From the sequence record OV876907: DNA of 64,000 nt; one strand, written 5' to 3'. The stretch is from Escherichia phage UGJNEcP3. Shown here piece after piece: positions 42,568 through 49,769 of the stretch; the stretch's first letter is position 1; each line of letters starts with the position of its first letter. The notes beneath the pieces are model-generated. The model saw only the letters and a program-made list of their open reading frames with translations. It was not told where the DNA came from and ran no database searches. The translations under genes were made by a program, and so were the position numbers.

Positions 42568-43605
42568 TTATTTTTCGAAAGGACGAATTAAATGATGGTT
42601 ATCTTGGAACCGCTTGATGTAGTCATTTTCACCTAGGGTCTTATACATGTTCACTACCGAGTTATAATTCTCGTATGCGTATTCGCGGAACCAACCTGAA
42701 GTGATTGAGGTGCACACTTTCTCAAGAGCCATATAGAAACTTAATGACGGCGAAATATTAAAGTCATTAGGAACCTGTGAACGTTCTAGTGCCAGGACAC
42801 AAGTTTCTTCATACACACCGGCCAATTTAATAGCTTCAGGCAAAGCTTCAAACTTCTCACGAGAGGTCATGACTTCAGAACCATCCTTCATATAAAAGGT
42901 ATATGCAGGGCGCCCTGCCAATGCTACTGCTTCGTGGATGGAGTCATGGTCCAGCGTATAAATGGTATCATTAAAGAATGATGATTTGTTAACGTCTAAT
43001 TTAGGGTGAGAATAGCTCAACGTTTCTTTTTGACGTTGCAACATAATTTCCTGGAGTTCTTCGTTCAGGGTCACGCCTTTATTACGAAGGTATTTGATGT
43101 GGGACATAGTTTTCAAGAAGAACGGATTATTCTTAAGGAAACGATGAGAGGTTTTGATAGCCAGACAGATATCAGGGGTTGCCCAATAGAAACCTGTAAG
43201 ACGGTCCTTTTTAATATGATTTTCAGCATATTTCAGGAGACGATAGCTTGAGGTGTAGTCTTCATCTTGGAGCTCACCGGTAATTTCTCGTACATTAGTC
43301 AGGGCACGGACGATATAAGCTTCGAAATAGGTTTCTTTACCATTATGCATACATTTGAAAGCCTGAACATCAGGATTGTCAACGTGTACATGGGCGCCGA
43401 ACATCCGAGCTTTAAAGTGGTTCCATGAGCCTTGGTCGGCAATGAAATCCCAATCAGAATTTTCGATATACTTATTTTCAATCAGACCTGCGTGGTGCAG
43501 TGCACGAGAACCAATAACTAGCATCATAATATTTTCCTCAGTAAACTTAAATTTCGGCAACGTAAGTATTATGTAATTCCCACATATCATTGGAATTACT
43601 CTCAA
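42568..43605 (-). CDS. Hypothetical protein, possible nucleotidyltransferase fold
   Basis: 345 aa; GSRALHHAG...SDWDF weakly fits G-S-x(n)-D-x-D; start uncertain. Confidence 0.5.
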   Translation of the reverse strand: MRVIPMICGNYIILTLPKFKFTEENIMMLVIGSRALHHAGLIENKYIENSDWDFIADQGSWNHFKARMFGAHVHVDNPDVQAFKCMHNGKETYFEAYIVRALTNVREITGELQDEDYTSSYRLLKYAENHIKKDRLTGFYWATPDICLAIKTSHRFLKNNPFFLKTMSHIKYLRNKGVTLNEELQEIMLQRQKETLSYSHPKLDVNKSSFFNDTIYTLDHDSIHEAVALAGRPAYTFYMKDGSEVMTSREKFEALPEAIKLAGVYEETCVLALERSQVPNDFNISPSLSFYMALEKVCTSITSGWFREYAYENYNSVVNMYKTLGENDYIKRFQDNHHLIRPFEK

Positions 43606-43786
43606 CGATAGGAATTATCTCATTAGAGATTTCTTCTGCATAAGGGTCATTGATACAGTGAGCATCTTCAAAACGAACACCGTAATCAGACTTCTTATAA
43701 GAGAAGCCATAAATCTTTTTAAACTTGGCACGAGTAATGCGTACCGGTTCATTAGACTTATCGGACATCGGGGCGTAATACCACAT
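43547..43786 (-). CDS. Hypothetical protein
   Basis: 79 aa ORF. Confidence 0.4.
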   Translation of the reverse strand: MWYYAPMSDKSNEPVRITRAKFKKIYGFSYKKSDYGVRFEDAHCINDPYAEEISNEIIPIVESNSNDMWELHNTYVAEI

Positions 43787-44189: not shown

Positions 44190-44417
44190 TTATTTTCCTA
44201 ACGAAACACGAGTAGGTTTTTTACCAAAATAGTCTTCGTAAGAACCATCTAAACGGCCTGCTTTAGACCGACAATACGAATCATACTTTTTGTAATAAGT
44301 CATCTCGGTATTATAACGTGGGTGTCTATCAGCCATAATAATACTTAGTGGCCAACCTTTGGCATAATCGCGAAGACCATTTATTTTACGAATGTATCGT
44401 TTTTTCAATTTTAGCAT
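44190..44417 (-). CDS. Hypothetical protein
   Basis: 75 aa ORF. Confidence 0.4.
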   Translation of the reverse strand: MLKLKKRYIRKINGLRDYAKGWPLSIIMADRHPRYNTEMTYYKKYDSYCRSKAGRLDGSYEDYFGKKPTRVSLGK

Positions 44418-44635
44418 GAGCTTGGGTACCAGATTTTACCATCGGCCTGAGCAACGAAGGTGCGACCAGCTTCTTCACCATAACAAGAGCTATTCAGCCA
44501 ATCTTCGAGACGAACTTCACCGTCATAATCATCGAGCTCAACACCGAAATCCTGGGCAGAAGCCATATCTTTTACTTTCTTATACAGTGCAGCCAGTTCA
44601 AGAGCAGCTTTTTCTAATTCATTAATATCAGACAT
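44411..44635 (-). CDS. Small protein, W-x-SS-x-x-C family member 1
   Basis: Trimmed to MSDINELEKAAL (SD AAGGAAA); ends KIWYPSSC. Confidence 0.5.
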   Translation of the reverse strand: MSDINELEKAALELAALYKKVKDMASAQDFGVELDDYDGEVRLEDWLNSSCYGEEAGRTFVAQADGKIWYPSSC

Positions 44636-44645
44636 TTTTATTTCC

Positions 44646-44858
44646 TTAGCAAGACATAGAAGAAGTAAACCAGAAACCATCACCATCAGGAATGCCGTAA
44701 TCATCACGGACCCATTCGTAATCATCATATTCCGGGTTCTTTGGAGAAATGTATTGTCCACGACCAGAAACATGGAACTCTTCACCTGTTTCGTCAGCCA
44801 CGGACTGGCCTTTACGTACTAATTCACGGATTTGTTTTTCAATTTCATCAATAGTCAT
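44646..44858 (-). CDS. Small protein, W-x-SS-x-x-C family member 2
   Basis: 70 aa; ends GFWFTSSMSC; SD TAAGGTAA. Confidence 0.5.
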   Translation of the reverse strand: MTIDEIEKQIRELVRKGQSVADETGEEFHVSGRGQYISPKNPEYDDYEWVRDDYGIPDGDGFWFTSSMSC

Positions 44859-44867
44859 TTTATTACC

Positions 44868-45065
44868 TTAGCATTCGTAAGAGGAGGACACCCAAGAGGT
44901 ACCACTAATAGTAATACAACCGTTATAAAGCGTGATATGTCGTTCTAGGTCACGAACACCATCGATATAGATATCAGCTTCTTCGCGTTCTTCTTTACAA
45001 ATCTGGATAACGTTTTCAATAGCTGCGGCTGCAGTACGGATTGCACAATCTAGTTCACGAGACAT
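44868..45065 (-). CDS. Small protein, W-x-SS-x-x-C family member 3
   Basis: 65 aa; ends TSWVSSSYEC; SD TAAGGAA. Confidence 0.5.
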   Translation of the reverse strand: MSRELDCAIRTAAAAIENVIQICKEEREEADIYIDGVRDLERHITLYNGCITISGTSWVSSSYEC

Positions 45066-45074
45066 AATAATTCC

Positions 45075-45356
45075 TTAACATTCAGAAGAAGAGGATACCC
45101 ATCCACCATTTTCTAGGCTGGTAGTGTAATCATGTTGGTTTACAATAGCGTACTGAGCTTCACCGTATTCTTCCCAGTGGGCAAGGTCGGCTTTCAGGGC
45201 GCCAGGAGAATAATAGTCACCGCCCATACCGCGAGCAGGGTATATATTAAAATGAGTCTCATATTTGTTAGCAATTTCCTCAGCACGACGAATAGCTTTA
45301 TGAATATCATTTACTGCTTCAGCCAGCTCTTTATTTTTACGGTAATCATTCATCAT
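45075..45356 (-). CDS. Small protein, W-x-SS-x-x-C family member 4
   Basis: 93 aa; ends GGWVSSSSEC; SD TAAGGAAA. Confidence 0.5.
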   Translation of the reverse strand: MMNDYRKNKELAEAVNDIHKAIRRAEEIANKYETHFNIYPARGMGGDYYSPGALKADLAHWEEYGEAQYAIVNQHDYTTSLENGGWVSSSSEC

Positions 45357-45365
45357 AGAATTTCC

Positions 45366-45656
45366 TTAGCACATTGCTGAAGAGGAGACCCAAGCACCAA
45401 CTGTAACGACACCGTTTTCAACTTCACCGCCATTGTTTTCAATTTCATCTTTAAACCACTGGGAGCATTCATAACCGACAGGATAATATGTACGGCCTGA
45501 ACCATAATCACCGGTACCGAATTGAATACCGTACTTATCGGCAATAGCTTCGCATTCATGTTCGATGGTATCTACTTTATTCAGAAGAGCATAGATAGCC
45601 TTTTCTGCAGACAGCGCGCTGTTGTATTCAGGGATTTCAATTTCAATTTTATTCAT
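45366..45656 (-). CDS. Small protein, W-x-SS-x-x-C family member 5
   Basis: 96 aa; ends GAWVSSSAMC; SD TAAGGAA. Confidence 0.5.
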   Translation of the reverse strand: MNKIEIEIPEYNSALSAEKAIYALLNKVDTIEHECEAIADKYGIQFGTGDYGSGRTYYPVGYECSQWFKDEIENNGGEVENGVVTVGAWVSSSAMC

Positions 45657-46042
45657 GATTTACATTCCTTAATAAAGGTTTCAAGGTCATTACGTTTAGT
45701 TTGTTTTACATACTCATTATAATTAGCCATAGCTAAAGCATATCTCTTTTTACGTGGCTTGTTTATTTTATTAGTTTGGGCAATATCAAAGACCCATGGG
45801 ATAAAAAATCCTATTAAAGCCGGAACCCAAATCCACGCGAGGCTCATATCTTCAAACGGATGGCGAGGCATACCATTAATAATCCCACCGACAAGAAATC
45901 CAATTATCCCTGCAGTCATACTAGTAGCAATGCCGAGGAATAATGAAATAGAGATATCGTAATCTGCTAATGCGTAACCAGGGTCGGTTTTACTAGGCTT
46001 ATGCATTTTGAACCTCTTTAGCGTATTCGCGACATTCAGCAA
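45653..46042 (-). CDS. Hypothetical membrane protein (FIKEC C-terminal family)
   Basis: 129 aa, two TM helices, C-terminus LETFIKECKS. Confidence 0.5.
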   Translation of the reverse strand: MLNVANTLKRFKMHKPSKTDPGYALADYDISISLFLGIATSMTAGIIGFLVGGIINGMPRHPFEDMSLAWIWVPALIGFFIPWVFDIAQTNKINKPRKKRYALAMANYNEYVKQTKRNDLETFIKECKS

Positions 46043-47177: not shown

Positions 47178-47255
47178 AGTATTTCCTTCAGTTGGTTAAC
47201 GTTTTGTAATCCATGAGGACATTATACCCTGTCCTCTGAGGGTTGTAAACATTTT

Positions 47256-49611: not shown

Positions 49612-49686
49612 TGGTATCCCGCCCTGGGATCGAACCAGGACCGCAAACTTAGAAGGATCGTATGCTATCCATTACACCAGCGGGAC
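49612..49686 (-). tRNA. tRNA-Arg (anticodon UCU)
   Basis: 75 nt; manual cloverleaf with 7-bp acceptor stem, T-loop TTCGATC, anticodon loop CUUCUAA, CCA encoded. Confidence 0.8.
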
Positions 49687-49691
49687 ATAGT

Positions 49692-49769
49692 TGGTGACCC
49701 GGACCAGATTTGAACTGGTAACCTTTCCCTTATGAGGGGACTGCTGCTAACCAATTGAGCTACAGGGCC
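49692..49769 (-). tRNA. tRNA with anticodon CAU (Met, or Ile if lysidinylated)
   Basis: 78 nt; acceptor GGCCCUG pairs with CCGGGUC, T-arm CCAG-UUCAAAU-CUGG, anticodon loop CUCAUAA, CCA encoded. Confidence 0.75.

Follow-up and report, generated by a model that had tools for sequence, protein, structure and literature searches.

A 64,000-nucleotide stretch of DNA from Escherichia phage UGJNEcP3 (sequence record OV876907), referred to here as the window, carries a tandem array of five small genes whose products share a motif, W-x-x-S-S-x-x-C, at the extreme C-terminus. Downstream of the array, on the same strand, lies a gene for a 319-amino-acid (aa) protein with the Pfam domains DUF7277 and DUF7275 and a predicted nucleotidyltransferase fold. 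Both components are widespread, occurring in T4-like, rV5-like, Otagovirus, Menderavirus and jumbo phages, and their genetic linkage strongly suggests that they are the two parts of a partnered cassette, a conclusion that we consider very probable. We further propose, with a little under an even chance of being right, that the small proteins partner the enzyme and that their common tail is its recognition or acceptor site. The linkage turns two families of 'hypothetical proteins' into a single testable two-component module, for which the biochemical readout would be a nucleotide adduct on, or binding through, the eight-residue tail. It also provides a first functional lead for the Pfam families DUF7277 and DUF7275 and for the PHROG groups 899 and 4882. 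The tail motif and the cassette are undescribed as far as the searchable literature shows, although the sequences are catalogued in PHROGs and in the two Pfam families; our literature search returned no description of DUF7275, DUF7277 or the small-protein family.

A family of small proteins with a conserved C-terminal tail

The five genes, here called p5 to p1, are listed below in the order in which they follow one another on the minus strand. E values are for the PHROG match and for the hidden Markov model (HMM) of the family, and dN/dS is the ratio of nonsynonymous to synonymous substitution rates.

45366–45656, minus strand: p5, 96 aa, ends AWVSSSAMC; phrog_899 (E 5.6e-23); family HMM E 1e-18; dN/dS 0.13–0.25
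45075–45356, minus strand: p4, 93 aa, ends GWVSSSSEC; phrog_899 (E 2.6e-20); family HMM E 9e-21; dN/dS 0.10–0.33
44868–45065, minus strand: p3, 65 aa, ends SWVSSSYEC; phrog_4882 (E 2.4e-36)
44646–44858, minus strand: p2, 70 aa, ends FWFTSSMSC; phrog_899 (E 1.1e-13); family HMM E 1.4e-14; dN/dS 0.04 against Bp7
44411–44635, minus strand: p1, 74 aa from MSDINE, ends KIWYPSSC; phrog_899 (E 4.3e-10); dN/dS 0.04–0.17

All five open reading frames (ORFs) are annotated as coding sequences (CDSs) in the identical GenBank record OV877765, and the tandem arrangement, positions and C-terminal ends reported for them in an earlier note on this DNA were confirmed throughout. The exact W-x-x-S-S-x-x-C end is found in four of the five, with p1 having the shortened form W-Y-P-S-S-C. 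A six-frame stop-to-stop scan of the window identified these five frames, and no others, as ending in W-x(1-2)-SS-x(0-3)-C, which excludes a chance origin of the motif. Comparisons with orthologues from Bp7, Gaprivervirus RZ, a Mosigvirus-like contig and a Klebsiella-phage-like contig gave dN/dS values of 0.0–0.33 for all five genes, with dS of up to ~1.6. It is virtually certain that the five ORFs are real, translated genes of a real family.

An HMM search of 1.84 billion protein cluster representatives returned 428 clusters at 50% identity (E <= 1e-3). Of the 150 best-scoring representatives, 146 are small proteins (<200 aa), and our census of the tail covers these. The exact end, W-x-x-S-S-x-x-C-COOH, is present in 131 of these 146 proteins and a near variant in 12 more. 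The tail cysteine is the only cysteine in 84 of the 146. Family members are short and acidic, with a median length of 86 aa (range about 65–100 aa) and a median isoelectric point of 4.5 (range about 4.2–5.1). The two invariant serine positions use all six serine codons, and therefore selection acts on the protein; the cysteine uses both of its codons.

A canonical member begins with a ~30-residue amphipathic helix ending in AE.IADEhGl.F.F, followed by a nearly invariant A-Y-G-M-G-G-T-Y-Y-P hairpin, a variable acidic linker with a semi-conserved tryptophan, and a final strand leading into the tail G-x-W-x-S-S-S-x-x-C (G-G-W-x-S-S-S-x-x-C in the alignment). Among the five proteins of the array, p4 is closest to the family consensus, with the central motif ARGMGGDYYSP. 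The central motif is degenerate but recognisable in p5 (GDYGSGRTYYP); p2 has a weak form of the Gly/Tyr hairpin (SGRGQYISP), and p1 and p3 have none. Pairwise identity among p1–p5 is 27–36%, which agrees with the earlier description of their N-terminal regions as divergent, but p2, p4 and p5 are full-length homologues belonging to one family (family HMM E <= 1e-14). The family HMM did not find p1 or p3. Using hhalign, p3 aligns to the family over the last 11 columns only (probability 72%) and p1 over the tail region only (probability 88%). The motif at the extreme C-terminus is the one universally conserved element, as expected for the paralogous family with a conserved C-terminus that the earlier note had recognised. 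An AlphaFold2 (AF2) model of p5, with a predicted local distance difference test (pLDDT) score of 91.4, is compact and consists of a long helix that packs against a small sheet. The last strand of this model contains Trp89, and the final SSAMC forms a terminal turn that is predicted with less confidence (74).

A second, internal copy of the motif, DWLNSSCYGEE, is present in p1 (44486–44518, minus strand) and is kept in its orthologues, including that of the rV5-like phage ESCO13, which has both copies. The internal form W-x-x-S-S-C-Y-G-E is also seen in several metagenomic members (e.g., P0086, P0095, P0113, and P0118), and W-E-S-S-S-E-G occurs as two or three repeats in some members (P0066). 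The p1 frame can also be read from an upstream GTG at 44785, as a 124-aa ORF (44411–44785, minus strand) that overlaps p2 out of frame and gains a hydrophobic, membrane-helix-like segment (ITAFLMVMVSGLLLLCLA). Gene callers chose this long form in some metagenomes (P0022), and on one contig a p1-type protein is fused to a different hydrophobic N-terminus (P0024). The placement of the Shine-Dalgarno sequence (SD) favours the 74-aa form.

PHROGs assigns p1, p2, p4 and p5 to phrog_899 and p3 to phrog_4882, so that a family already catalogued there is split in two; both groups are listed as being of unknown function, and their entries record no tail motif and no linkage to the enzyme. Searches of Pfam, NCBIfam and PADLOC with the five proteins and with 59 diverse family members gave no match, and a sequence-profile search of the PDB with the family matched designed helical proteins only, with no fold relative found. 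The labels 'tail completion protein', 'prohead assembly scaffold protein' or 'major capsid protein' are attached to the small ORFs or to the enzyme gene in several GenBank relatives. We found nothing in support of these labels, which look like annotation transfer errors.

Linkage to a gene for a predicted nucleotidyltransferase

The partner gene is located downstream of the array in the window:

42568–43527, minus strand: gene for the 319-aa DUF7277–DUF7275 protein with a predicted nucleotidyltransferase fold; 884 nt downstream of p1 on the same strand

Its product matches DUF7277 in the N-terminal part (E 5e-27) and DUF7275 in the C-terminal part (E 3.5e-77), and belongs to phrog_2141. Linkage was counted by clustering the genes located on the same strand and up to 5 kb from the small genes at 43 loci (from IMG/VR, plus the window), all of which had been selected through the small protein. 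The DUF7277–DUF7275 gene is present at 41 of these 43 loci, and the two exceptions are cut by contig ends. The next most common neighbour is found at only 11 loci, all of them T4-like. Four further metagenome contigs selected through the small protein all encode PF23942 plus PF23940 0–630 nt downstream, giving a combined count of 45 out of 47. The enzyme gene usually follows directly after the last small gene (median gap ~79 nt), and the small genes lie upstream of it in 40 of 44 loci.

A search with the enzyme gave 734 GenBank phage records. Among loci selected in this way, small genes are located just upstream of the enzyme gene in ESCO13 (rV5-like), phiPsa397 (Otagovirus) and Acinetobacter phage Lazarus, and just downstream of it in Xanthomonas phage X1 and Stenotrophomonas phage Moby. 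The small genes can thus lie on either side of the enzyme gene, and therefore the linkage survives rearrangement. Nor is it an artefact of redundant contigs, because the enzymes of the 52 loci with both genes fall into 30 clusters when grouped at 70% identity and into 12 when grouped at 50%. Neither gene is present in the syntenic e-to-tRNA region of T4, the only region of that genome that was scanned.

Two further features of these loci were observed. In five jumbo-phage contigs (L009, L011, L017, L027, and L033) a GC-rich hairpin (GGGGAA...TTCCCC) stands right after the stop codon of the last (second) small gene and is followed by a gap of 660–690 nt and then the enzyme gene; this hairpin could be a terminator or attenuator that separates the two parts of the cassette in this lineage. 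In addition, several unrelated phages have tRNA genes or tRNA-related genes no more than a few kb from the cassette (the window; L053, L054, L047, L055, L050, and L007–L039). The neighbours include tRNAs in X1 and Moby, fragments resembling His-tRNA synthetase in ESCO13 and L055, an RNA ligase in Annadreamy, and, judged from sequence, polynucleotide-kinase-like and RNA-ligase-like genes in the jumbo contigs. They may reflect a chance clustering of accessory genes or may hint at a tRNA-directed activity.

The probable partner enzyme

The residues G6, S7, D25, D27 and E69 are invariant across 45 diverse homologues of the enzyme. The C-terminal domain is conserved even more strongly than this catalytic core, with the invariant residues K125, H128, H174, H194, D195 and H198 and the blocks PAY..Y, GVYEE.CVLALER and KVCTSITSGWFRE. 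An AF2 model of the enzyme (pLDDT 91.6, predicted template modelling score 0.85) has the strand and helix order of the Pol-beta type at its N-terminus, followed by an all-helical domain. The protein is predicted to be a minimal nucleotidyltransferase of the MenT/AbiEii/ANT(2'') type with intact putative catalytic residues (GS...DxD...E). No match was obtained for the enzyme profile among PDB sequences, and the protein has no match to Pfam DUF1814 (only to DUF7277 and DUF7275), PADLOC or NCBIfam. We also considered DUF7275 as an HD-type phosphohydrolase, for which we found no support beyond the invariant His/Asp pattern, the PDB profile search being empty. The family comprises ~2,000 clusters at 90% identity, and one GenBank record labels an Acinetobacter homologue as 'putative nucleotidyltransferase'.

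A proposed role for the tail

We propose that the small proteins are dedicated protein partners of the DUF7277–DUF7275 enzyme. Their invariant C-terminal tail would be recognised by the enzyme, docking in or near its active site, and a serine hydroxyl of the tail (or the terminal cysteine) would be the most likely acceptor of a nucleotidyl group. The paralogues would serve as alternative substrates or carriers that combine a single modification handle with variable bodies having different downstream activities. Pol-beta-fold enzymes are known to nucleotidylylate dedicated small proteins, as in GlnD–PII, MntA–HepT and CitX/MdcG, and CitX and MdcG modify a serine of small acidic acyl carrier proteins (CitD and MdcC). 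The cassette resembles these pairs in that a nucleotidyltransferase-fold enzyme is genetically tied to small proteins with an invariant hydroxyl-bearing motif. It differs in that there is no sequence relationship to their enzymes or substrates, and they offer no counterpart to the set of several paralogous substrates or to the strictly C-terminal motif.

The tail is favoured as the recognised element because it is the only feature common to all of the paralogues, including p1 and p3, which are aligned to the family by their tails alone and yet are retained in the array across genera. It is also favoured because its position at the extreme end and its invariant cysteine suggest insertion into a pocket or a chemical role, and because several paralogues with one handle and one enzyme follow the logic of multiple substrates rather than of a single inhibitor. 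We judge the chances that the tail is the enzyme's handle to be evenly balanced. That the tail is covalently nucleotidylylated is a more tentative suggestion, drawn by analogy, which we consider possible but not likely; if the tail were a modification site, it would represent a new kind of protein modification in phage–host conflict. The 'anchor or recognition tag' of the earlier note is plausible as a tag, given that the motif is kept in p1 and p3 and that its serines are selected as amino acids, but the likely reader would be the phage enzyme and not a host protein. In an extended version of the proposal, which is doubtful, the enzyme would load nucleotides or a short template-independent oligonucleotide, much as MenT extends tRNA, onto the SSxxC tail of each small protein, and thereby form a new class of phage protein–nucleotide conjugates. 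The paralogues would be carriers with different targets in the host, acting for example as decoys or inhibitors of nucleotide- or tRNA-based defences, and the His/Asp-rich domain DUF7275 could remove or edit the modification, which would amount to an add-and-remove switch similar to that of GlnD.

Several points weigh against partnership through the tail. The closest structural relatives of the enzyme, MenT1, MenT3 and MenT4, act on tRNA and not on proteins, and the small partners encoded upstream of them are inhibitors (PMC10435456). A beta-strand is predicted around the motif's tryptophan, which means that the motif may be partly structural, and the conserved Tyr/Gly loop of canonical members could be the functional site instead of the tail. 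Within the family the Ser-Ser pair is invariant and the tyrosine loop nearly so; each is a candidate acceptor. Small genes were not detectable alongside two distant relatives of the enzyme, in Vibrio phage ValKK3 (26% identity) and in Streptomyces phage Annadreamy (C-terminal domain only). Furthermore, the array and the enzyme gene of the window have three unrelated ORFs between them, and co-location within a plastic accessory region could result partly from co-transfer.

In a different reading, the enzyme would be a MenT-like nucleotidyltransferase directed at tRNA, and the small proteins would act on it non-covalently, either as antitoxin-like inhibitors or as specificity subunits, with acidic bodies or tails that fill its nucleic-acid or nucleoside triphosphate site. 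There is a precedent in MenA1, a 68-aa protein that is encoded upstream of MenT1 and blocks its active site (PMC10435456). The cassette resembles this pair and the related AbiEi–AbiEii, MenAT3 and MenAT4 systems both in the G-S...D-x-D...E residues of the enzyme and in having a small helical protein that is usually encoded just upstream, as at the 40 of 44 loci counted above, and the strong acidity of the small proteins and the tRNA-related genes near the cassette in several unrelated phages would fit as well. The module nevertheless differs from characterised examples in its restriction to phages, its multiple paralogous partners, its invariant W..SS..C-COOH tail and its DUF7275 domain. Each enzyme is accompanied by between one and six distinct paralogues kept as separate lineages, where a single, tightly coupled antitoxin would do, and the invariant cysteine and Ser-Ser exceed what steric inhibition needs; no such tail has been reported for MenA antitoxins. 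Other genes can intervene, as they do in the window, and the gene order can be reversed, as in X1 and Moby, both of which are atypical of toxin–antitoxin pairs. The enzyme lacks a DUF1814 match, having DUF7277 and the large, highly conserved DUF7275 instead, and the module is essentially missing from bacterial genomes (185,579 species) and from PADLOC. On balance we consider the inhibitor model possible but not likely; if it were true, the cassette would represent the first case of lytic phages domesticating a MenT-like toxin module.

It is improbable that the small proteins are independent, host-directed effectors, for example in anti-defence or host take-over, with a purely structural motif and an enzyme gene nearby only through co-transfer. 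In favour of this model, phage inhibitors are typically small, acidic proteins made early, the e.3–e.2 interval is variable and accessory, and Trp89 lies in a predicted strand of a compact fold. This model does not readily account for linkage at 45 of 47 loci, across 12 enzyme clusters at 50% identity and among otherwise unrelated neighbours in T4-like, rV5-like, Otagovirus, Menderavirus and jumbo-phage backgrounds, where no other neighbour is conserved across lineages; nor does it account for a tail that is kept where the remaining fold is not. The tail could also be a tag for some conserved machine of the host (a protease, an adaptor or a C-terminus-binding domain, for example): the motif is found at the extreme C-terminus in ~90% of members, as are C-terminal degrons and PDZ ligands. 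This is very unlikely, as the range of hosts is wide (enterobacteria, Aeromonas, Acinetobacter, Pseudomonas, Xanthomonas, Stenotrophomonas and the hosts of jumbo phages), the sole constant partner is encoded by the phage, and the motif is unlike any bacterial degron known to us. Finally, the spacing of Ser(-3) and the C-terminal Cys(0)-COOH, together with several 'precursor' genes ahead of a possible tailoring enzyme, resembles the layout of a lanthipeptide cluster, in which the two residues would form an aminovinylcysteine (AviCys) or lanthionine-type ring. We rejected this reading, which would make the small proteins akin to precursors of ribosomally synthesised and post-translationally modified peptides (RiPPs) and which we think scarcely credible, on account of missing tailoring enzymes and predicted folded domains: no dehydratase, cyclase, LanD-type flavoprotein, YcaO or radical-SAM protein is encoded among the eight neighbours or among conserved neighbours elsewhere, and AF2 predicts a folded domain (pLDDT 91 for p5). 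A conserved C-terminus with a variable N-terminus is also the reverse of leader and core logic.

Distribution and history of the paralogues

A tblastn search with p5 matched 389 phage records from Dhaka-, Gapriver-, Mosig-, Karam- and other T4-like genera and from Aeromonas phages. Single small-protein tblastn searches are too insensitive for a census across lineages, and our first family alignment was too diverse for loci to be retrieved by sequence pattern. HMM scans added the rV5-like Phapecoctavirus, Otagovirus, Lazarusvirus, Menderavirus, Xanthomonas phage X1 and IMG/VR contigs of 76–389 kb; homologues from the protein collection lie on contigs of up to 570 kb. The pattern YGMGGTY(Y/F) was found on a single 1.2-kb contig of a metagenome-assembled genome among the 185,579 bacterial and archaeal species genomes, and the family is essentially phage-only.

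The number of members per locus ranges from one to six: one at 7 loci, two at 14, three at 12, four at 2, five at 8 and six at 1. The complete set of five paralogues is present in other T4-like genera with 35–70% identity, arranged as p5-p4-p1-p2-p3. Smaller sets are found as p5-p4-p3 on Mosigvirus-like contigs and as p1-p5-p4-p3 on a Yersinia-phage-like contig, and genes of the p4, p1 and p5 types are present in rV5-like phages. p3 is absent from Bp7-, WG01- and QL01-type relatives, and phage RZ has no clear p2 orthologue. The p3 protein is 100% identical to the copy in Gaprivervirus vB_EcoM_RZ (L003), with 8 synonymous differences between the genes, and the flanking paralogues are 85–97% identical. 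This suggests that individual members of the array were recently exchanged or replaced at the conserved 46-nt junction repeats.

These repeats, with 67–72% identity, are the only DNA that the paralogues share. Recent segmental amplification was rejected on this ground and on the presence of orthologues in other genera. The earlier note had described a diversifying family, a view at odds with the orthologues that each paralogue has at 45–70% identity in other T4-like genera, with the p1-, p4- and p5-types in rV5-like phages and with the purifying selection acting on the genes (dN/dS 0–0.33). The array is a reshuffled set of old, long-lived, non-redundant paralogues and not a recent diversifying expansion.

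Gene junctions

At the four internal junctions of the array the TAA stop codon of one gene lies within the SD of the next, in the sequences TGC-TAA-GGAAAT, TGT-TAA-GGAATT, TGC-TAA-GGTAAT and TGC-TAA-GGAAAT, with an ATG 6–7 nt further on:

45360–45368, minus strand: p5/p4 junction, p5 TAA stop inside the SD TAAGGAAAT, ATG 6 nt on
45070–45077, minus strand: p4/p3 junction, TGT-TAA-GGAAT
44865–44870, minus strand: p3/p2 junction, TGC-TAA-GGT; the SD is TAAGGT and not TAAGGAA
44643–44648, minus strand: p2/p1 junction, TGC-TAA-GGA

The earlier claim that a TGC-TAA supplies each following SD holds for these four junctions, apart from one TGT codon and one TAAGGT. It does not extend to the first gene, p5, where TTAAGGAA is not a stop but the in-frame codons ATT-AAG-GAA of the upstream e.3-like gene, which supply the p5 SD; the TGA of the e.3-like gene overlaps the p5 ATG (ATGA). 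A TAA stop inside a TAAGG(A/T) SD is found at five junctions in the whole window, four of which are in the array, and this concentration arises because the junction belongs to the duplicated repeat unit. Elsewhere in the family, the overlap occurs at 22 of 107 non-redundant gene ends. The special weight placed on it previously is not warranted: overlaps of this kind are ordinary where phage genes are closely packed, and the array inherited its own along with the duplicated 46-nt junction, so that the overlap is not a feature of the family. The four TAA-in-TAAGG(A/T) junctions and the ATGA overlap at the 5' end of the array resemble the translationally coupled gene strings of T-even phages, the sole unusual point being the inclusion of the junction in the repeat unit. 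The junctions would couple translation along the array, and the repeats would be the sites at which members are gained, lost and reordered.

Gene neighbourhood

The window derives from a Dhakavirus (Tevenvirinae, T4-like). The region is 100% identical to Escherichia phage UGJNEcP4 and 91–98% identical to JS98/Bp7/WG01-type phages. The array is flanked by homologues of T4 e.6 and e.3 upstream and by e.2/nudE/e downstream, all on the minus strand, and the interval between e.3 and e.2 is a variable accessory region. The genes next to the array are as follows:

45653–46006, minus strand: e.3-like membrane protein gene, 117 aa; ORF, annotated CDS, phrog_2330; orthologue labelled 'e.3' in phage RZ
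43547–44417, minus strand: three small ORFs (75, 109, and 79 aa) between the array and the nucleotidyltransferase gene; ORF calls, annotated CDSs

Promoter-like sites are no more frequent in the region than expected by chance, and no promoter-like or terminator-like site above chance was found inside the array. The best sigma-70-like site of the region (TTTACA-17-TATAAT, 11 of 12 matches; 47221–47249, minus strand) lies just upstream of the e.6 homologue. This arrangement fits a single polycistronic early or middle transcript running through e.6, a 178-aa gene, the e.3-like gene and p5–p1 and onward. An RNA element in the region was considered and rejected, as the only Rfam matches are two tRNA genes (tRNA-Arg and tRNA-Met; 49612–49769, minus strand) located ~4 kb upstream of the array. 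The 79-aa ORF downstream of the array (43547–43786, minus strand; phrog_3723) occupies the same position in 11 T4-like loci and may be a lineage-specific third component of the cassette.

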